From the IMG/VR virus record IMGVR_UViG_3300028920_001457, positions 1-64,000 of that record: a DNA stretch of 64,000 nt; one strand, written 5' to 3'. The translations under genes were made by a program, and so were the position numbers. Positions 34,224 through 43,135 of the stretch are shown here, piece by piece (the stretch's first letter is position 1; each line of letters begins with the position of its first letter). The notes under the pieces are model-generated. The model did not search any database. It was not told where the DNA came from and saw only the letters and a list, made by a program, of their open reading frames with translations. Source of the DNA: a virus.

Positions 34224-34943
34224 ATGCCAAAATCAAAGACAAAAGACTGCCAGGGGATAAGTCTTAACAAAAGACGCAACAGGTGGGAGGTTACTATTAT
34301 CTATAAAAGGAAGCGCTATTATTTGGGTTCTTATCACAACAAAAAGATTGCACGGGCTGTATGGGAGTCCAAGAGAGATGAATTTTATGGGACAGAATCA
34401 GTACTCGACTTGCGTGGCGAGGTTTGGATTAAAATGGATAAACATAAGGGGGAATATTATGTTAGCAATAAGGGGCGAGTAAAAAACCTAAATTTTAAGG
34501 GCATGGGCTACGAAAGATTGTGTGGTATCATACCTTCGCATGGCTATAATCAAGTAAAGATAAATAGGGAGAGTTATTCTATACATCGGTTAGTTTTACA
34601 ATATTTTAAGGGAGAATCCGACCTTCCGGTTAATCACAAGGACGGAAATGGAACAAATAATATTTTAGAAAACCTAGAGTATGTTAGTCAGCGGATTAAT
34701 GGTTGCCATGGTTATTTTGTTGTGAACAAAAGAAATGTCCTAACGGGGGCACATTGGGATAAGTGGAATAATAGTTGGCGGTCTGAAATAAACATTAATG
34801 GTAGATTGGTATATTTAGGGTCTTTTAATACATCCATAGAGGCATGCGATAGATACTTACGGGCATTATTGGATTATGGCCTTCAGGATGATTATGATTA
34901 TATTGTCGAAATGATTGGACATAAACCCCATGTCGGAAATTAG
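34224..34943 (+). CDS. NUMOD4/HNH/AP2 homing endonuclease
   Basis: YYVSNKGRVK, IHRLV, VNHKDG...N...NLE, two AP2-like YLGS domains. Confidence 0.9.
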   Translation: MPKSKTKDCQGISLNKRRNRWEVTIIYKRKRYYLGSYHNKKIARAVWESKRDEFYGTESVLDLRGEVWIKMDKHKGEYYVSNKGRVKNLNFKGMGYERLCGIIPSHGYNQVKINRESYSIHRLVLQYFKGESDLPVNHKDGNGTNNILENLEYVSQRINGCHGYFVVNKRNVLTGAHWDKWNNSWRSEININGRLVYLGSFNTSIEACDRYLRALLDYGLQDDYDYIVEMIGHKPHVGN

Positions 34944-36400: not shown

Positions 36401-38155
36401 ATGAATACTTTAAGGTTATTCAATGCGGTAATCGCAAAAGAATCTACAGAAAAACCCTTCGTTTCAGAAGAGGGATTTATCATTGAATCAAATGCTCTTT
36501 GGGCAAAAAATAGGATATTGGAATTCTATCTCAAGGAAAAGTTAAGTGGTAACGATCTTAACAAAACATTTCACAAATCATGGGCTAAAATTAAAAACAG
36601 CTCTCGGTTTGAATTGTTTGTTGAGCAGATATTTCATTATATTTCTACATACGGAAGTGATTTTCAGGACGAAATATATATTCCCGATGAAGTATTAAAT
36701 GTACCTGACGTAAAGTTGTCATACAAGGTTGTCCGTGCATATTCCAAGGAGGAAATGACGGATAAGTGTTTATCACTATTAAAATCAGGTATAGCATTAA
36801 AGGAGGAAACAATTAATGAGGTGTTATCGGTGCTTGTTGAAGAACTGGATTATTCCTTTACGGGAAATGAGAAAATCAGAAACAAAGAGGCTGTTATAAA
36901 AATAGCAGATATTTATGGCGTTCTGCCCAATGACACCATGGAGTTTTTCAGATATATTATATATCGGGCTACGGGGCAGTCTCTTCTTATTAAGAGCAAT
37001 GATTTGATAATGAAAATTAAAGAAGGGAATTATAATCCGTCGGTTCAGTTTAATAAATTCGGATTAGAAAAATTGGCAACGATATTTAATCGTTTTAAGC
37101 CATTATTCTTGGCATTTAAACCCAAGTGCGGAAAAACGATCAATAAAATTGCGAAGTTGTCTAAAAAGTTTCATAAACCTCTCGTTGTCAACCCCCTTAA
37201 TACCGCAACAAGTGAGCTGATGGGGGATGATGATAGACATTGGTTGGATAATGCTACGCCGTACGCTTTATTTAAAGTATTATCGGCATGTTATACGAGA
37301 GCGAGCGGCCAAGAGTCTTTCGTTTATCGGATTAGAAACGGGAAATCCTGGGTCAAGGAAAAGGAAACTATTTTGAGGGTGAACAAGTTAAATTTTGATT
37401 TCATTATAAAGTATCTGAAAGAAAGATATGATTTATCAGAAAAGAAATTCTTTTTGCCTGCTGATATAAAATATGCCCTTCCTACATCAGAAAAAATGTT
37501 TGTTGGCAATATTCCCACAGGAACGAGATTTTATGGCAGGAAGTTGGCGGTTGGGATATATTGGGAGGACGCATGGGGGGCAAGAGACCTCGATCTTTCG
37601 GGGTTGACGCTTTCAGGGCATAAGGTTGGTTGGAATGCAGAATATGATTATGGCGAAGGACAATTAATGTATTCTGGCGATATTACATCCGCCCCCAATG
37701 GTGCGGTAGAGTACCTGTATGCCAACAAAGGGCTTCGGGAATCGGTTTTAATAAAAAACAATGTTTATTCGGGAAGTAATGAATGTGATTATAAAATCGT
37801 TATTGGGTTGGGGGATAAGATTTCTGTGGATTATATGATGAACCCAAATAATCTTTTTATAGAAGTCAAATGTAAGTCCGTACAAAAACAGACCATATTG
37901 GGGATTCTTACTCCAAAGAAAATGGGGCAGTGCTTTGTATTGCTTAATTTTGGGGCGGGACATGTAAGGGTGTCGGGCAACAGTAAGATATCTAATATCG
38001 CCCTTAAGTCACTATATGAACAATGGAACAAACCGTTTTCATTTAATAAATTGATTAAATTATTGGGGGCGCAGATTGTTGAAAACAAAGAGGATGCAGA
38101 TTATGATTTCTCGTCTGATAATTTAGAAAAAGATTCTTTTATTAAGATATTTTAA
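36401..38155 (+). CDS. Large helical protein with C-terminal TerD-like domain
   Basis: GIYW...RDLDLSG...YSGDITSAPNGAVEYL is TerD-like; N-terminal LNKTFHKSW...EQIFHYISTYG helical region. Confidence 0.6.
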   Translation: MNTLRLFNAVIAKESTEKPFVSEEGFIIESNALWAKNRILEFYLKEKLSGNDLNKTFHKSWAKIKNSSRFELFVEQIFHYISTYGSDFQDEIYIPDEVLNVPDVKLSYKVVRAYSKEEMTDKCLSLLKSGIALKEETINEVLSVLVEELDYSFTGNEKIRNKEAVIKIADIYGVLPNDTMEFFRYIIYRATGQSLLIKSNDLIMKIKEGNYNPSVQFNKFGLEKLATIFNRFKPLFLAFKPKCGKTINKIAKLSKKFHKPLVVNPLNTATSELMGDDDRHWLDNATPYALFKVLSACYTRASGQESFVYRIRNGKSWVKEKETILRVNKLNFDFIIKYLKERYDLSEKKFFLPADIKYALPTSEKMFVGNIPTGTRFYGRKLAVGIYWEDAWGARDLDLSGLTLSGHKVGWNAEYDYGEGQLMYSGDITSAPNGAVEYLYANKGLRESVLIKNNVYSGSNECDYKIVIGLGDKISVDYMMNPNNLFIEVKCKSVQKQTILGILTPKKMGQCFVLLNFGAGHVRVSGNSKISNIALKSLYEQWNKPFSFNKLIKLLGAQIVENKEDADYDFSSDNLEKDSFIKIF

Positions 38156-38156
38156 T

Positions 38157-38164
38157 TATCTTTG
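38157..38164 (+). promoter_or_regulatory. Bacteroidota-type -7 promoter element of tRNA operon 1
   Basis: TATCTTTG four nt before the leader ATG (leaderless-like). Confidence 0.65.
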
Positions 38165-38168
38165 CACC

Positions 38169-38231
38169 ATGATTAGAATACAGCATATAGAGCAACCGCA
38201 ACAGCCAAGAGCCGATATTGGGTCTGGATAG
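38169..38231 (+). CDS. Attenuator leader peptide 1 (MIRIQHIEQPQQPRADIGSG)
   Basis: Codons ATA,CAG,CAT,ATA,GAG,CAA,CCG,CAA,CAG,CCA match downstream Ile(TAT), Gln, His, Glu, Pro tRNAs. Confidence 0.85.
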   Translation: MIRIQHIEQPQQPRADIGSG

Positions 38232-38256
38232 GTGTTCTATGTGTTTATAATACAGA

Positions 38257-38287
38257 GCCTTCTGGACTATTTCAGAGGGCTTTTTTT
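38257..38287 (+). terminator. Attenuator terminator 1
   Basis: GCCTTCTGGA-CTAT-TTCAGAGGGC plus T7, just before the first tRNA. Confidence 0.85.
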
Positions 38288-38291
38288 ATTT

Positions 38292-38364
38292 CGGAAGTAT
38301 GGTGTAATCAGGTAGCATACGTGCCTTGGGCGCACGGGGAGTAGTTCGAATCTAATATTTCCGA
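38292..38364 (+). tRNA. tRNA-Pro(TGG)
   Basis: CGTGC-CTTGGGC-GCACG; acceptor CGGAAGT/ATTTCCG. Confidence 0.9.
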
Positions 38365-38370
38365 CAATAT

Positions 38371-38442
38371 TGGCACATAGGTTAATGGTAAGACCTCTCG
38401 GCTTATACCCCAGCAGTCCAAGTTCGATTCTTGGTGTGCCAA
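38371..38442 (+). tRNA. tRNA-Ile(TAT)
   Basis: Loop CTTATAC; acceptor TGGCACA/TGTGCCA; T loop TTCGATT. Confidence 0.8.
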
Positions 38443-38443
38443 C

Positions 38444-38518
38444 GGTGGTTATGGTGTAATGGCAACATAACTGTTTGTGGAGCAGTGGTTATCAGTTCGA
38501 GCCTGATTAATCACCCCA
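38444..38518 (+). tRNA. tRNA-His(GTG)
   Basis: G-1:C73, loop TTGTGGA, encoded CCA. Confidence 0.9.
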
Positions 38519-38519
38519 T

Positions 38520-38590
38520 GCTCGGTTCTTCTAACGGCAGGAAATCGGGTTTTCACCCCGGCAATAGCGGTTCAATTCCGCTACCGAGTA
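38520..38590 (+). tRNA. tRNA-Glu(TTC)
   Basis: TCGGG-TTTTCAC-CCCGG; T arm AGCGG-TTCAATT-CCGCT. Confidence 0.9.
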
Positions 38591-38596
38591 CGATAA

Positions 38597-38667
38597 TGCC
38601 TTGTGGTGTAATAGTAACACATAACACTTTGGATGTTATGTTTTCGGTGCGAATCCGAACAAGGCAT
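38597..38667 (+). tRNA. tRNA-Gln(TTG)
   Basis: TAACA-CTTTGGA-TGTTA; acceptor TGCCTTG/CAAGGCA. Confidence 0.9.
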
Positions 38668-38676
38668 CAAAATAAA

Positions 38677-38707
38677 TTTGGAAATTTAAAAATATGTATT
38701 ATCTTTG
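38677..38707 (+). promoter_or_regulatory. Bacteroidota-type promoter of tRNA operon 2
   Basis: TTTG (38677) then 19 nt then TATCTTTG (38700). Confidence 0.75.
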
Positions 38708-38726
38708 TACCAATAAAAAACAAAAA

Positions 38727-38801
38727 ATGCAGTTAGTCAGAAAGAATATGGTGAATATTGACCGCACAGGCGCAACCTTGCGAGGGGGTATTCCTATATG
38801 A
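38727..38801 (+). CDS. Attenuator leader peptide 2 (MQLVRKNMVNIDRTGATLRGGIPI)
   Basis: Core V-R-K-N-M-V-N-I-D-R-T-G-A-T covers all 10 amino acids of the 11 downstream tRNAs. Confidence 0.85.
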   Translation: MQLVRKNMVNIDRTGATLRGGIPI

Positions 38802-38822
38802 TTTCTGTAAGAAACAACAGGG

Positions 38823-38851
38823 ATGCCCTCAAGAGATTGGGGGCATTTTTT
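38823..38851 (+). terminator. Attenuator terminator 2
   Basis: ATGCCCTCAA-GAGA-TTGGGGGCAT plus T5. Confidence 0.85.
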
Positions 38852-38853
38852 AT

Positions 38854-38924
38854 TGGCTCATAGTTTAATAGTAGAACGCATCTCTGATACGGATGTAGCC
38901 TAAGTGCGATTCTTAGTGAGCCAA
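38854..38924 (+). tRNA. tRNA-Ile(GAT)
   Basis: CATCT-CTGATAC-GGATG; acceptor TGGCTCA/TGAGCCA. Confidence 0.85.
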
Positions 38925-38928
38925 CAAT

Positions 38929-39001
38929 AGCGGGTTGTGTAGAAATAGTATCTCGTCAGTCTCATAAGCTGAAGTTATGGGTGCAATCCCCATACCCGCT
39001 A
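38929..39001 (+). tRNA. tRNA-Met(CAT)
   Basis: TCAGT-CTCATAA-GCTGA; acceptor AGCGGGT/ACCCGCT. Confidence 0.85.
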
Positions 39002-39005
39002 CAAT

Positions 39006-39077
39006 GGGAATATGGTGAAATGGGTATCACGATGGACTGTTAATCCTTCGTTATAGGTTCAAGTCCTATTGTTCCCG
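39006..39077 (+). tRNA. tRNA-Asn(GTT)
   Basis: Loop CTGTTAA; G73. Confidence 0.9.
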
Positions 39078-39081
39078 CAAA

Positions 39082-39153
39082 GTCCTTGTGGTGTAATGGA
39101 GAGCACAAGTGTCTTCTAAGCATTTAGTCAGGGTTCGACTCCTTGCGGGGACA
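39082..39153 (+). tRNA. tRNA-Arg(TCT)
   Basis: Loop CTTCTAA; T loop TTCGACT. Confidence 0.9.
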
Positions 39154-39159
39154 CTAAAT

Positions 39160-39234
39160 ACCCTTGTAGGCTCCTTGGTGGAGAACCAGATTGTCACTCT
39201 GGTAAAACAGACGGATCGTAACCGTTCAGGGGTG
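39160..39234 (+). tRNA. tRNA-Asp(GTC)
   Basis: CCAGA-TTGTCAC-TCTGG; G73; atypical T loop ATCGTAA. Confidence 0.8.
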
Positions 39235-39239
39235 CAAGC

Positions 39240-39312
39240 GGGTTGCAATGTACCAAGGCTGGCGAGAGACCCTTGCAAGGTTTTTGGCTCGGTTCGATTC
39301 CGAGGCGATCCA
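39240..39312 (+). tRNA. tRNA-Ala(TGC)
   Basis: Loop CTTGCAA; G3:U70 identity pair present. Confidence 0.9.
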
Positions 39313-39315
39313 CAA

Positions 39316-39387
39316 GCAGGATAGGTGTTGATGGTTGCATAAGAGCCTTCCAAGCTCAAGGAGTGAATTCGAATTTCACATCCTGCT
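39316..39387 (+). tRNA. tRNA-Gly(TCC)
   Basis: Loop CTTCCAA; acceptor GCAGGAT/ATCCTGC; U73. Confidence 0.9.
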
Positions 39388-39391
39388 CAAT

Positions 39392-39466
39392 GGGCGATTA
39401 GTTTAATGGACAGAATATATCGCTACGGACGATATGGTGAGGATTCGATTTCTTCATCGCCCACCA
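39392..39466 (+). tRNA. tRNA-Arg(ACG)
   Basis: TATCG-CTACGGA-CGATA; encoded CCA. Confidence 0.9.
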
Positions 39467-39468
39467 AT

Positions 39469-39540
39469 GACCCTATAATTTCAACAGTAGAATCCCATCC
39501 TTTTAAGATGGTTGTCTTGGGGCGGAACCAAGTGGGGTCA
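39469..39540 (+). tRNA. tRNA-Lys(TTT)
   Basis: CCATC-CTTTTAA-GATGG; atypical T loop GGCGGAA. Confidence 0.8.
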
Positions 39541-39544
39541 CAAA

Positions 39545-39616
39545 GGCAGGTTAGTTTAAGCGGCAAAACACGTGATTTGTAACCATGAGATACGGCTTCG
39601 ATCGCTGTACTTGCCT
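39545..39616 (+). tRNA. tRNA-Thr(TGT)
   Basis: Loop TTTGTAA; acceptor GGCAGGT/ACTTGCC. Confidence 0.85.
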
Positions 39617-39621
39617 CAAAT

Positions 39622-39694
39622 AGCCCGATAGTGTAGCGGTTAAGCACGGCACCCTTACAAGATGTCAGCCACAGTTCGAGTCTGTGTTGGGCTA
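39622..39694 (+). tRNA. tRNA-Val(TAC)
   Basis: Loop CTTACAA; T loop TTCGAGT. Confidence 0.85.
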
Positions 39695-39712
39695 CAAAAA
39701 AACATAAATATA

Positions 39713-39743
39713 TTTGTTTATTTAAAAATTATTATTAATTTTG
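39713..39743 (+). promoter_or_regulatory. Bacteroidota-type promoter of tRNA operon 3
   Basis: TTTG (39713) then 19 nt then TAATTTTG (39736). Confidence 0.75.
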
Positions 39744-39749
39744 CAGATT

Positions 39750-39812
39750 ATGAAAAATCTATGGTGTTCATATAGTTTATTTTCACTCTTGCTCTTGAGG
39801 CGAGGCGGATAA
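39750..39812 (+). CDS. Attenuator leader peptide 3 (MKNLWCSYSLFSLLLLRRGG)
   Basis: CTA,TGG,TGT,TCA,TAT,AGT,TTA,TTT,TCA,CTC,TTG: at least one codon for each of the 9 downstream tRNAs. Confidence 0.9.
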   Translation: MKNLWCSYSLFSLLLLRRGG

Positions 39813-39838
39813 ACTATATCTACCAAAGATATATTGAA

Positions 39839-39864
39839 GCCTCGCTTATAAAGCGGGGTTTTTT
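39839..39864 (+). terminator. Attenuator terminator 3
   Basis: GCCTCGCTT-ATA-AAGCGGGGT plus T5. Confidence 0.85.
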
Positions 39865-39869
39865 GTTAT

Positions 39870-39942
39870 GGGGAATTGACGTAAATGGCAACCGTATTGG
39901 GTTTAAGCCCCAAGTTTGAGAGTTCGAATCTCTTGTTCCCCA
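39870..39942 (+). tRNA. tRNA-Leu(TAA), short variable loop
   Basis: TTGGG-TTTAAGC-CCCAA; A73. Confidence 0.85.
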
Positions 39943-39945
39943 CAT

Positions 39946-40018
39946 GGTCGAGTGACGTAACAGGCAACCGTATCCGTCTCAAAAGCGGAGTTTATGGGTT
40001 CGAATCCCATCTTGACCA
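39946..40018 (+). tRNA. tRNA-Leu(CAA), short variable loop
   Basis: TCCGT-CTCAAAA-GCGGA; A73. Confidence 0.85.
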
Positions 40019-40022
40019 CAAA

Positions 40023-40095
40023 GCTCAGGTAGTAAATTGGCAAAGCAACTTGACTTAGGATCAAGGATTTGTGAGTTCGAGTCTCACCCTGAGTA
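40023..40095 (+). tRNA. tRNA-Leu(TAG), short variable loop
   Basis: CTTGA-CTTAGGA-TCAAG; A73. Confidence 0.85.
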
Positions 40096-40099
40096 CTAT

Positions 40100-40191
40100 G
40101 GATGGCTAAACCACAGTAGGTCTAAGTGGGACGGTCTTGAAAACCGTAGGTCGCTCAACACGGCGTGTAAGTTCGAGTCTTACGCCATCCG
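40100..40191 (+). tRNA. tRNA-Ser(TGA)
   Basis: ACGGT-CTTGAAA-ACCGT; long variable arm; G73. Confidence 0.9.
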
Positions 40192-40195
40192 CGAA

Positions 40196-40278
40196 GGGAC
40201 GGCTTGGCATTAGTGAGCCTAAGAGTCTGTAAAACTCCCGCTTCGGCTGTGGTGGTGCAAATCCATCTCGTCCCACCA
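40196..40278 (+). tRNA. tRNA-Tyr(GTA)
   Basis: Loop CTGTAAA; variable arm; encoded CCA. Confidence 0.9.
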
Positions 40279-40279
40279 A

Positions 40280-40362
40280 GGAGAGTAAATCATCAAGGCG
40301 ATGACTACGCCCGCTAAGCGATAGGTTCTGAAAGGAATGGGACTCGGGTTCTCTGCTCTCCG
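40280..40362 (+). tRNA. tRNA-Ser(GCT), divergent
   Basis: Acceptor GGAGAGT/GCTCTCC, loop CCGCTAA (C33), long variable arm, weak T arm. Confidence 0.65.
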
Positions 40363-40367
40363 CAAAC

Positions 40368-40437
40368 AGGGATACCCATTGGAGTGGTAAGCGGTCTCCA
40401 AAACCGTGATTTGAATGTTCGACCCGTTCTATCCCTG
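40368..40437 (+). tRNA. tRNA-Trp(CCA)
   Basis: GCGGT-CTCCAAA-ACCGT; G73. Confidence 0.85.
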
Positions 40438-40441
40438 CTAT

Positions 40442-40518
40442 GGAGAAGTAGCTGAGTCGGTTCAAGCGTCGGACTGAAAATCCGAAGTAGATGAGTTCAA
40501 TTCTCATATTCTCCACCA
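40442..40518 (+). tRNA. tRNA-Phe(GAA)
   Basis: TCGGA-CTGAAAA-TCCGA; encoded CCA. Confidence 0.9.
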
Positions 40519-40519
40519 A

Positions 40520-40586
40520 GACCCAATAAAAGCACAAAACGTGGTTTGCAAAACCATGGGGGACGGTGCGATTCCGTCTTGGGTCT
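40520..40586 (+). tRNA. tRNA-Cys(GCA), D-arm reduced
   Basis: GTGGT-TTGCAAA-ACCAT; U73; D region is an unpaired A-rich 14-mer. Confidence 0.75.
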
Positions 40587-40624
40587 CTAATATATTTCTT
40601 ACCTTTGCATAAAACAAGAATAGT

Positions 40625-43135
40625 ATGGGCAAGAAACAACCGCCAAAGGCAGAAAAGAAACTTTCCTTTGAAACAGACTTTGAGTTACAGGAAGAAACCC
40701 GCCTAAAGCTACGTCCCGAAGATATAGTAAAGATAAAAGAGGAAGCAGGCAAACTACCCGATGACTTTAATCCTTATGGGAACTATATGCCCGAAAAACT
40801 CAGATTTCTGGGCGACGAACCACCCCCAAACACCAAAAGATTTGTTGGAATAAATGTGGATGATGATGATCTGACACCGATTTATGTAAGCACACCCGCC
40901 CCCCCGCCGAAAGAATTAATAGATTATCACGACCTACCACCCACAGAACAATATTGGCGGCGTATGGAAGTACCCAAACGACTGCATAAATTAGAAGAGA
41001 GAGCCTTCCTTGCGCTATTTGAGGTAGAAAGAAGAAACAGGCAGGAAACAGTACAGGGCTATAGGATTTATCAGAAATATTGGGAAATATTAGAAGCAGA
41101 ACAGGATAAATATGCGGAAGAGATAGCATGGATAAAAAAGATGTGGTGGTACAGGACTAACGGCTATTGGTTCTATAATGATGGCGAACCCGCCTATTGT
41201 ACTGGTGAATATTTTGATTATCTTAACTTTTGGTATATAAAGGATGGTGAGACACATGTGGAATTCAGGGAAGAGGATCGGGTTATTTCTATTTTTTCAC
41301 ATTATCTAAGAACAACAACCGAGTCTTTCGCCAACATAAACCCCACCACGGGTAGGGCAATGAAAAATAAAGATGGCAAGTATGATATGGTGGATGTCGG
41401 TGCAAGAGTATTTTTCGGTGACATGAAACCGAAATTCAGGAGGTGTGGGGAAACGCAATGGGCGTGTCACGGGATATGGCTTGGTGCGAGTACGACACCC
41501 GCCGCTTATGGTACTATCATATCCATGGATGGTGAAAACGCACAAAAGCACTATTACAAAAAGCTAATACCCGCATGGAATAAATATCCTATGTTTCTCA
41601 AGCCAATATGGATGGGTACGAAACGTCCCACAAATATTAAGTTGATAGAACCACCCAATGTATTTAATCCCAATATGGAGGGATTGGGTTCTAATATTGA
41701 TTATACAGAAAGCTCCGGGGTGTCGAAGAATGATGGTGATACATTACATTTTTGTCTCTCAGACGAGGAGGGAAAAAGTAAGTCACCTATAGCCGAAAGG
41801 TGGAGTGTAAATAAGATAGCTATGTCAACGGGTGGTGGGTCTAACATCCTTAATAACGCTTATGCGTGGCATCCGAGTACCGTTGAGGATATTGGTGACG
41901 GTGCGCCAGAGTATTTTAAAATGTGGCAACTATCTAATTTTTATGAAAGGATACCCATACTTGGGCAGACACACTCGGGGTTGGCAAGGATTTTCATTCC
42001 CGCATATAAGAAACTCGAGGGTTTTATTGACAGGTGGGGTAAGTCGGTATCGGATACACCAACGAAACGACAGATAAAATACAGTCCACGAGCCAAATTT
42101 GCACTCACGGGCAAGGGTGCAAGGGAAACACTACAGGCAGTTCTTGATTCCTTGTTAGCCAAGGGGACACCCGAGGCACTTGAGGCATACAGGTCAAGGC
42201 GCAGAAAGTTCCCGATGAAGTCGGCAGATGCATGGTTGGGGAGTTCGGGTAATGTGGGTTTCAACCTTGAGATAATAGACAAGCGTATAGAGGAACTCAA
42301 TAGGATAAAGTCTTTTGGCAAGATGAATTATAAAACCGGGTATTTTTACAGGGAAAACAATCATCCACAGGGCGATGTGTTGTGGCGTACAGACCTCGAC
42401 AACCCCAAGTTTATCATGTCCAAGGACTTACCACAGGAATTAACCAACAGAAGGAGTGTGGTCGACTTTTACGATGGTCTCAGGCAACAGTGGAAGAAAT
42501 CATGGACACCAGTAGACGGATATAAATTCACCCTTGGGGTGGATATGTTCAGAAATCTATCGCCCGTAGAGGCAAAACAGGCATCTAAATTTGGGGGATT
42601 TACCAATAACTCCCGCCAGAGTAATGGTGGTATAGCTATTCTATGGGAATATGATTCAGAATATCCCGATAGTGGCAGGTGTGTATTGTCGTATAATTAT
42701 CGTCCATCGACACAAAAAGAGTTTATGGATGATGTTCTTATGGCGGCACAGTATTTCGGGGCAATGATATATCCCGAACAAAACGTAGAGCGGTTTATTG
42801 AGTATATGTTTGATGAGGGCTATGGCGGGTATGGGCTTTATGATATTGATTTGGTAACTGGTAATATAAAGAAACTACCAGGGCGATATACTACAAAAGA
42901 AAGCCTGCAAGAGATGTTCAGGGAATATAAGGACTATATAGAACGTAAGGGTGCGGAAGAAGAACACGATGATTTGCTAATGCAGATGAAAAACATACGT
43001 GGGGTAGAAGATGCTACACGTAATGACCTTTTCGTTGCTTTCGGTATGTGTCTTCTTGGAAGTAAGTCCCGTGTCAGGGAAATTATAAAGCGTGAAGACT
43101 TTGGTGAGGCAATAGCAATAGACGATATTTTTTAA
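40625..43135 (+). CDS. Terminase large subunit (crAss-like)
   Basis: Walker A-like KPKFRRCGET, Walker B-like LSDEEGK, nuclease LGVD, E.NV and D..VAFG motifs; sits before portal. Confidence 0.85.
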   Translation: MGKKQPPKAEKKLSFETDFELQEETRLKLRPEDIVKIKEEAGKLPDDFNPYGNYMPEKLRFLGDEPPPNTKRFVGINVDDDDLTPIYVSTPAPPPKELIDYHDLPPTEQYWRRMEVPKRLHKLEERAFLALFEVERRNRQETVQGYRIYQKYWEILEAEQDKYAEEIAWIKKMWWYRTNGYWFYNDGEPAYCTGEYFDYLNFWYIKDGETHVEFREEDRVISIFSHYLRTTTESFANINPTTGRAMKNKDGKYDMVDVGARVFFGDMKPKFRRCGETQWACHGIWLGASTTPAAYGTIISMDGENAQKHYYKKLIPAWNKYPMFLKPIWMGTKRPTNIKLIEPPNVFNPNMEGLGSNIDYTESSGVSKNDGDTLHFCLSDEEGKSKSPIAERWSVNKIAMSTGGGSNILNNAYAWHPSTVEDIGDGAPEYFKMWQLSNFYERIPILGQTHSGLARIFIPAYKKLEGFIDRWGKSVSDTPTKRQIKYSPRAKFALTGKGARETLQAVLDSLLAKGTPEALEAYRSRRRKFPMKSADAWLGSSGNVGFNLEIIDKRIEELNRIKSFGKMNYKTGYFYRENNHPQGDVLWRTDLDNPKFIMSKDLPQELTNRRSVVDFYDGLRQQWKKSWTPVDGYKFTLGVDMFRNLSPVEAKQASKFGGFTNNSRQSNGGIAILWEYDSEYPDSGRCVLSYNYRPSTQKEFMDDVLMAAQYFGAMIYPEQNVERFIEYMFDEGYGGYGLYDIDLVTGNIKKLPGRYTTKESLQEMFREYKDYIERKGAEEEHDDLLMQMKNIRGVEDATRNDLFVAFGMCLLGSKSRVREIIKREDFGEAIAIDDIF

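Follow-up and report, generated by a model that had tools for sequence, protein, structure and literature searches.

Transcription attenuation by leader peptides is known from the trp, his, leu and pheA operons of enterobacteria, and multivalent leaders are known from thr (threonine and isoleucine) and ilvGMEDA (leucine, valine and isoleucine). Attenuation at the pheM leader also controls pheST in Escherichia coli. The reason for the presence of tRNA genes in phages has been debated for fifty years, the two explanations being codon compensation and an escape from defences that target tRNAs, and to our knowledge the regulation of these genes has hardly been addressed. Phage tRNAs have been described as a counter-defence against the tRNA-cleaving PARIS/AriB system and anticodon nucleases (PMC11464382, PMC10264068). 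The trn L-array of Anabaena sp. PCC 7120, a supernumerary tRNA operon, remains unexpressed as long as translation is intact; its control acts at initiation, through the repressor TrcR, which acts on direct repeats over the -10 box (PMC8421152, PMC10272220). Leader-peptide attenuation ahead of amino acid operons has been reported in Flavobacterium psychrophilum (PMC9723704). Here we analyzed a tRNA array located on the first 64 kilobases (kb), hereafter called the window, of the 77.4-kb virus record IMGVR_UViG_3300028920_001457 (77% complete; G+C content 38.6%). We conclude that the array is probably controlled by three ribosome-mediated leader-peptide transcription attenuators, each governing one block of phage tRNA genes.

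The array comprises 25 tRNA genes, all on the + strand, which cover 20 of 20 amino acids and are arranged in blocks of 5, 11 and 9. Block 1 (38292-38668, +) contains Pro-TGG, Ile-TAT, His-GTG, Glu-TTC and Gln-TTG, block 2 (38854-39695, +) contains Ile-GAT, Met-CAT, Asn, Arg-TCT, Asp, Ala-TGC, Gly-TCC, Arg-ACG, Lys-TTT, Thr-TGT and Val-TAC, and block 3 (39870-40590, +) contains Leu-TAA, Leu-CAA, Leu-TAG, Ser-TGA, Tyr-GTA, a Ser-GCT-like gene, Trp-CCA, Phe-GAA and Cys-GCA. The genes were identified with ARAGORN (18 calls at default and 23 at relaxed threshold) and with the Rfam tRNA models, where 18 reached at least the gathering score and Ser-TGA and Trp appeared as sub-threshold hits of the tRNA-Sec model; hand inspection was added for block 3. 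Two of the 25 genes, Ser-GCT-like (40280-40365) and Cys-GCA (40520-40590), were missed by ARAGORN even at relaxed thresholds, and their assignment comes from hand inspection and from positional homology with genes called by ARAGORN in relatives. Both are non-canonical: the Ser-GCT-like gene, which is conserved in two related metagenome contigs (L007 and L014), has a bulged anticodon stem and C33, and the Cys-GCA gene has a weak, reduced D arm. Together with the related arrays, these data bear out the gene number, amino acid coverage and block structure proposed in an initial annotation of this DNA. With respect to decoding, block 1 reads CCN, CAN, GAR and AUA. Block 2 reads the A-first codons (minus AUA and AGY), the G-first codons (minus GAR) and CGN, and block 3 reads every U-first sense codon plus CUN and AGY.

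A common layout precedes all three blocks. Each starts with a promoter of the Bacteroidota type, followed by a leader open reading frame (ORF) of 20-24 codons, an antiterminator sequence and a hairpin with a U-tract directly ahead of the tRNA genes, as the initial annotation had described. The promoters were identified by the sigma-A motifs of Bacteroidota, a TAnnTTTG -7 box and a -33 TTTG, and both elements are kept in L007, L009 and L014, the three related contigs used for comparison. Promoter 1 has its -7 box TATCTTTG at 38157-38164 (+), conserved in L009; it has no clean -33 element in the window, while one is present in L009. Promoter 2, conserved in L007 and L009, combines a -33 TTTG at 38677-38680 with the -7 box TATCTTTG at 38700-38707 (+), and promoter 3 combines a -33 TTTG at 39713-39716 with the -7 box TAATTTTG at 39736-39743 (+). 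In both cases the -33 element lies about 20 nucleotides (nt) upstream of the -7 box. Start sites were predicted from the position of the -7 box in F. psychrophilum, at -12 to -5 (PMC9723704). Transcript 1 would accordingly begin at the A of the leader-1 ATG (38169) and yield a leaderless mRNA, transcript 2 near 38712 with an A-rich 5' untranslated region of 15 nt, and transcript 3 near 39748 with one of 2 nt. The leader ORFs thus start 0, 15 and 2 nt past the predicted transcription starts, a position close to the 5' end as in known attenuators. For leaders 1 and 3 of the relatives, the spacing from box to ATG is likewise just 4-7 nt. About 5.5% of the mRNAs of F. psychrophilum are leaderless (PMC9723704).

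Leader ORF 1 (38169-38231, +) has 20 codons and a TAG stop, and its codons 4-13 read I(ATA)-Q-H-I(ATA)-E-Q-P-Q-Q-P, representing 5 of 5 tRNAs of block 1. Leader ORF 2 (38727-38801, +) has 24 codons and a TGA stop; codons 4-17 read V-R(AGA)-K-N-M-V-N-I(ATT)-D-R(CGC)-T-G-A-T and represent 11 of 11 tRNAs of block 2. An ATG at 38694 was rejected as its start codon, being located upstream of the -7 box. Leader ORF 3 (39750-39812, +) has 20 codons and a TAA stop, with codons 4-16 reading L(CTA)-W-C-S(TCA)-Y-S(AGT)-L(TTA)-F-S-L-L(TTG)-L-L and representing 9 of 9 tRNAs of block 3. Each leader is followed by an intrinsic terminator of -15 to -18 kcal/mol with a U-tract of 6-7 nt, which ends 3-9 nt before the first tRNA gene. 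The terminator of leader 1 (38254-38291, +) has a 13-base-pair stem and a 4-nt loop and adjoins tRNA-Pro. Those of leaders 2 (38819-38853, +, including the U-tract) and 3 (39836-39869, +, including the U-tract) were found by folding and, for leader 3, by alignment as well; the terminator of leader 2 is paired in 100% of the alignment cells of three sequences. An attenuator unit is compact and modular, with a size of about 130 nt.

The core of each leader matches the tRNA block that it precedes. We scored this match under strict wobble, in which U34 decodes A/G, G34 C/U, C34 G and A34 U/C/A, and the TAT anticodon decodes ATA only. Under these rules, all 25 tRNAs have at least one strictly cognate codon in the leader of their own block. 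With U34 also decoding four-fold boxes, the leaders contain uninterrupted runs of own-block codons of 10 (codons 4-13), 14 (codons 4-17) and 13 (codons 4-16). None of 200,000 random 5/11/9 partitions of the 25 anticodons reached the observed coverage, codon number and run length, and neither did any of 100,000 nucleotide shuffles of the leaders. The match (p < 5e-6) is specific to the reading frame, own-block runs in the other two frames being just 1-4 codons long, and the true pairing of leaders and blocks outscored all 5 wrong pairings. For comparison, the strictly read codon sets account for 17% (block 1), 43% (block 2) and 22% (block 3) of phage codons. The claim of the initial annotation that the leader cores use nearly only own-block codons was therefore upheld by the partition, shuffle and frame tests, the first of which it had itself proposed.

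Codon inspection showed that the match extends to isoacceptors, as had also been claimed. ATA, the most frequent isoleucine codon of the phage, occurs twice in the core of leader 1, ahead of the block with Ile-TAT, and ATT occurs in the core of leader 2, ahead of the block with Ile-GAT. Similarly, AGA and CGC are found in leader 2, and CTA, TTA, TTG, TCA and AGT in leader 3. Codons belonging to other blocks occur at positions 2-3 and in the tails. The control codons are thus concentrated where stalling would count, and the own-block stretch overlaps the window in which folding predicts antitermination.

The nascent leader RNAs were folded up to the terminator loop, with the bases covered by a ribosome masked. 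Free leader RNAs fold more stably than their shuffled versions (z = -5.4, -5.9 and -5.3 for leaders 1, 2 and 3). They form the terminator and, upstream of it, a long hairpin between the control-codon region (region 1) and the region around the stop codon (region 2), the leader stop codons lying within its 3' strand. The initial annotation had proposed a switch between antiterminator and terminator, which the masked folding supports, and had overlooked this upstream 1:2 hairpin. Since each leader has one, the leaders carry a full three-hairpin switch of the trp type. In leader 1, hairpin 1:2 is an anti-antiterminator in the minimum free energy (MFE) structure (38182-38245, +), with strands at 38182-38197 in the control codons and at 38231-38245 at and after the stop. 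It disappears with a ribosome on codons 4-14. With the A site on the same codons, 11 of 13 bases of the terminator arm are sequestered in antiterminator 2:3 (38221-38268, +), in which the ORF tail (38221-38233) pairs with the 5' arm of the terminator.

Leaders 2 and 3 follow the same logic. Hairpin 1:2 of leader 2 (38738-38807, +; strands 38738-38759 and 38787-38807) is likewise found in the MFE structure, and in its antiterminator 2:3 (38784-38830, +) the ORF tail at 38784-38795 pairs with the terminator 5' arm at 38819-38830. Here 12 of 14 arm bases are sequestered by a ribosome at codons 1-15 and none at codons 23-25. In leader 3, hairpin 1:2 (39757-39830, +; strands 39757-39782 and 39807-39830) is predicted by both MFE folding and RNAalifold, and the ORF tail at 39798-39806 pairs with the terminator 5' arm at 39839-39847 to form antiterminator 2:3 (39798-39847, +). 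Stalling in the core sequesters 9 of 12 arm bases. The folding hence yields three states: without a ribosome hairpin 1:2 and the terminator form, with the A site in the core the antiterminator forms, and once the ribosome has reached the tail or stop, region 2 is covered, the arm is free again and the terminator can form. These states are unchanged for ribosome footprints between +10 and +16 nt, and the non-matching tail codons sit in the predicted termination zone. In silico, the exclusive 1:2, 2:3 and 3:4 hairpins selected by ribosome position, which characterize attenuators, are present in the window and in its relatives.

A heptamer, CATATAG, constitutes the region-1 core of leaders 1 (38184-38190) and 3 (39769-39775), its partner strand downstream of the stop codon being CTAT(G/A)T. 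It is read in different frames, as His-Ile(ATA) in leader 1 and as (Ser)-Tyr-(Ser) in leader 3. Its counterpart in leader 2 is ATATGG, which pairs with CCTATAT. This suggests that the three attenuators are diverged paralogues that were re-coded for their own blocks.

We then asked which of these features are kept in relatives. The comparison covered the metagenome contigs L007, L009 and L014, whose large terminase subunit (TerL) is 73-78% identical and which carry homologous arrays at the same place; about 25 further TerL homologues (64-79% identical) lie outside it. Promoters, leader ORFs, stop positions, terminators and folding logic are all kept in the three contigs. For leader 3 (four sequences), both alternative structures are about 95% paired overall, with individual helices at 89-100%, and pairing falls to 27-55% when the partners are slid against each other as a control. 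Antiterminator 2:3 is paired in 100% of the cells of the four sequences and includes a compensatory change from C-G to U-A (alignment columns 75/108), while hairpin 1:2 has compensatory pairs at columns 33/92 and 47/80. In total, leader 3 shows double compensatory changes at two places in hairpin 1:2, one in the terminator and one in the antiterminator. RNAalifold independently predicts its hairpin 1:2 and terminator. The structures of leader 2 (three sequences) are 87-92% paired overall and 93-100% in the main helices. Its hairpin 1:2 is paired in 92.6% of cells, with compensatory changes, and its antiterminator in 94% of cells in the relatives.

The leader peptides as such are not conserved, and their residue order varies while membership in the codon set is kept. 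Of the core codons that differ between the window and L009, 6 of 7 stay within the set for leader 3 and 8 of 9 for leader 2, and the leader 1 homologue of L009 retains Q-H-I(ATA)-E-Q-P. Selection thus seems to act on the RNA structures and on the set of tRNAs that translation of the leader requires, and not on the peptide. The initial annotation had expected leaders to track the tRNA content of homologous arrays. This held for L007, where 20 of 20 tRNAs are matched if leader 2 uses an in-frame TTG start, and for 21-23 of 24 tRNAs in L009 (at most 2 of 100,000 partitions were as good), and it failed for leader 2 of L009, which has no Val codon. Taken together, the structural part of the earlier reading passed the permutation, frame, shuffle, ribosome-mask folding and conservation tests.

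From these data we derive the following model. Transcription would begin at a promoter of the Bacteroidota sigma-A type, and a ribosome would translate the leader of 20-24 codons, in the case of leaders 1 and 3 from a leaderless or near-leaderless 5' AUG. A fast ribosome would reach the tail or stop and cover region 2, such that the terminator hairpin with its U-tract forms and RNA polymerase halts about 10 nt short of the first tRNA gene. A delay at any codon of the central window would instead leave region 1 covered and allow region 2 to pair with the terminator 5' arm, and with the antiterminator formed the polymerase would continue into the tRNA block. Because the central window consists almost entirely of own-block codons, with at least one for each tRNA, each attenuator would work as an OR gate over the supply of decoders. 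Slow decoding might be caused by a low number of such tRNAs in the host, by high codon demand of the phage or by cleavage of host tRNAs. The result would be an autogenous, demand-driven feedback, in which a block is transcribed while its own tRNAs are limiting and switched off once they are plentiful. We infer that the leaders are translated, that a delay at a single codon is enough to switch, and that the signal is the amount of tRNA and not its charging, since additional tRNA would be useless under amino acid starvation.

A sensing-and-rescue function is plausible as a prediction from sequence and folding. It is possible, and we propose it only tentatively, that the array serves a cis-encoded surveillance of the tRNA pool, in which only the block that runs short is induced, leading to homeostasis and making up for host tRNAs that anticodon nucleases have destroyed. 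The sole, circumstantial hint of a tRNA-damage context, and hence of an anti-defence role, comes from L007. This contig encodes a full-length RtcB RNA ligase (L007:519-1688, +; Pfam PF01139, E = 5.6e-115) between tRNA blocks 1 and 2, with a TAnnTTTG promoter of its own. RtcB was not found in the record of the window, which is 77% complete.

Several observations weigh against control by three codon-specific attenuators. The evidence is computational throughout, and two non-canonical genes are among the 25 tRNAs. A leader contains 1-2 codons for most of its tRNAs, in contrast to the control-codon runs of classical attenuators, and the sensitivity to a single tRNA is therefore uncertain. Leaders 1 and 3 need leaderless or near-leaderless initiation, a minority mode in Flavobacteria, and the predicted antitermination window of leader 1 reaches 3-4 codons into block-2 codons. 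The relatives contribute exceptions as well. Leader 2 of L007 requires the TTG start to cover 11 of 11 tRNAs, leader 2 of L009 has its Gly codon only in the tail in addition to lacking Val, and leader 3 of L009 contains no strictly cognate codon for Leu-TAG. In four leaders of the relatives (L007_2, L007_3, L014_3 and L009_2) the ribosome-free MFE structure is already the antiterminator, so that a default-off state would there depend on the kinetics of co-transcriptional folding. Furthermore, the four carrier genomes share one origin, and conservation among them is thus no independent replication. Finally, the division into blocks broadly tracks the first codon base, so that a point mutation will often leave a codon within its set, which inflates the substitution argument.

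Some of these points would also fit attenuators that are real and report the general status of translation, such as ribosome availability, amino acid starvation or charging, or the coupling of transcription to translation, with the codon match as a by-product of typical phage codons. A variant of this idea is a timer, with high tRNA output early in infection that is then turned off. The switch would indeed respond to any slowing of the leader ribosome, one codon per tRNA makes a weak specific sensor, and codons of other blocks do occur at leader positions 2-3 and in the tails. However, a general sensor needs neither a partition into blocks nor a discrimination between ATA and ATT. The block-specific match is far above chance and is kept despite codon turnover, and the out-of-block codons are found mostly where stalling is predicted not to give read-through. 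We therefore regard a general sensor as unlikely, yet as the most serious competitor of block-specific attenuation.

A reading without any regulation appears very improbable. The hairpins would then be terminators or elements of processing or stability that insulate the blocks, and the ORFs would be untranslated and their codon content fortuitous. Short ORFs are frequent in AT-rich DNA, and TAnnTTTG is mildly enriched throughout the genome (61 occurrences on the + strand against about 40 expected, an estimate from base composition), but the codon match is frame-specific with p < 5e-6. Moreover, start, stop and frame of the ORFs and the two exclusive structures are conserved with compensatory changes, and a terminator that separates a promoter from its own genes makes sense only as a switch. 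Marginally less probable still is a primary role in trans for the terminated leader RNA (about 110 nt) or for the peptide of 20-24 residues, with control of the tRNAs being secondary. Precedents exist: attenuator-derived small RNAs and leader peptides with functions in trans are described, among them rnTrpL and peTrpL of Sinorhizobium (PMC6614838, PMC7298713). The leader RNAs are also strongly structured. On the other hand, no target is evident, and the residue order of the leaders changes while the codon set is kept, which argues against a function of the peptide. Block-specific attenuation therefore remains the reading that we favour.

The tRNA array is flanked upstream by a gene for a 584-amino-acid protein of unassigned family (36401-38155) and downstream by the TerL gene (40625-43135, +), which is preceded by a promoter box, TACCTTTG, at 40600 (+). 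No terminator was found between tRNA block 3 and this box or TerL. The 2.4-kb tRNA cassette (38157-40590) appears to be an accessory unit that sits immediately before the TerL promoter, because equally close TerL relatives (L008, L010 and L016, about 75% identical) have no array at the same junction. Besides L016, the TerL search of IMG/VR gave L003, likewise without an array, and L002/L018, a complete genome of 82.6 kb with zero tRNA genes. Among relatives identified by the 584-amino-acid protein, L004 and L005 have no array, and L006 has an array of 17 tRNAs in which we saw by eye no leader ORF or attenuator. The architecture is thus not general among neighbouring arrays. At 3 kb upstream of the array, the window has a gene for an HNH-type homing endonuclease (HNH_3 / NUMOD4 / AP2; 34224-34943, +). 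Another HNH-type homing endonuclease gene lies within block 2 of L014 (L014:571-1023, +). In block 1 of L007 (L007:87-234), whose leader is off the contig, a tRNA with a CAT anticodon replaces Ile-TAT and follows an unassigned element of 75 nt; this tRNA could be a lysidine-type tRNA-Ile2.

The nearest cultured phages by TerL infect Flavobacteriaceae (Cellulophaga, Tenacibaculum, Maribacter and Flavobacterium), at about 24% identity. DNA of the window is present in metagenomes from marine sediment and salt marsh, and a search of sequencing runs for the locus returned no RNA run among its matches. Salt-marsh contigs from four DNA runs (X2-X4, X7) of 100-600 nt, too short for an analysis of co-variation, carry related, mosaic arrays. 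Variant joints in these contigs omit single tRNA genes, for example from 40020 to 40093 and from 40366 to 40510, and some contigs have a leader 1 variant that is L009-like from 38199 on. A blastn search of GenBank phages gave no relative and only matches to single tRNAs, two conserved leader DNA patterns had no match in IMG/VR, and the TerL profile found no relative among GTDB genome contigs. In a spot check of the unrelated crAss-like phage cr111_1 (L021), a 13-codon ORF and a hairpin without U-tract precede the first tRNA gene, and no convincing attenuator was seen. In this phage (MT774387.1, 87-91 kb), a DpsA-like gene and a homing endonuclease lie among the tRNA genes of the array. Genes reported to adjoin cyanobacterial L-arrays are dpsA and rtcB (PMC8421152).

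The initial annotation knew of no description of leader-peptide attenuation controlling phage tRNA arrays. Our full-text literature search likewise turned up no report of tRNA genes, phage or cellular, under leader-peptide attenuation, which is not proof of absence. If the model is true, this would be the first instance of tRNA genes whose regulation depends on their own decoding activity. Leader-peptide attenuation would be extended from 1-3 amino acids to up to 11 inputs, and sensing at the level of isoacceptors would be shown. Fusions of the leaders to reporters could reveal which tRNAs become limiting during infection, and codon-specific biosensors of tRNA supply could be built from the compact, modular elements.

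How does the locus compare to the described systems? Similar to the Anabaena L-array, it is an accessory, horizontally mobile tRNA array that would be expressed on demand, and the association of the L-array with rtcB finds a parallel in the RtcB gene inside the array of L007. However, the L-array has one promoter for the entire array, of a different type than the promoters found here, and no codon-specific sensing, and the terms "leader peptide" and "attenuator" do not occur in the two papers on it (PMC8421152, PMC10272220). The studies on phage tRNAs as a counter-defence are related in that a phage-borne set could replace depleted host tRNAs. They cover the tRNAs and not their regulation, and neither of the two terms occurs in them (PMC11464382, PMC10264068). 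T-boxes, too, switch between terminator and antiterminator in cis, in response to the state of a specific tRNA, and act on genes of the translation apparatus. In contrast to the mechanism proposed here, they bind uncharged tRNA directly via a specifier codon, without a ribosome, and their targets are synthetases and transporters and not tRNA genes; no T-box hit in Rfam was obtained at E <= 1 within 37900-40800.

The pheM-pheST system comes closer, as a leader-peptide attenuator that reads the supply of aminoacyl-tRNA and controls a component of the translation apparatus. Its target is an aminoacyl-tRNA synthetase for one amino acid in a cellular genome, whereas phage tRNAs would be the targets here. 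The enterobacterial attenuators share the entire architecture: a promoter-proximal ORF with control codons, the 1:2, 2:3 and 3:4 hairpins, a terminator before the genes, a decision by ribosome position, and leaders that may sense more than one amino acid. Leader 3 even gives scores with the Rfam models Trp_leader (RF00513; 30.0 bits against a threshold of 41) and Phe_leader (RF01859; 25.2 against 55), which is architectural resemblance and not homology; the other two leaders gave no such scores. Unlike the enterobacterial leaders, which hold codon runs for 1-3 amino acids, the leaders described here have 5, 11 and 9 inputs with mostly 1-2 codons each. They discriminate isoacceptors, are phage-borne, and use Bacteroidota promoters and leaderless or near-leaderless starts. 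The classical scope of attenuation is biosynthesis or synthetase genes. Here the regulated genes are tRNAs, and the species that is sensed would be the product itself. We conclude that a known mechanism, the leader-peptide attenuator, is probably combined with a new target, tRNA genes, an assignment that is well supported in silico.

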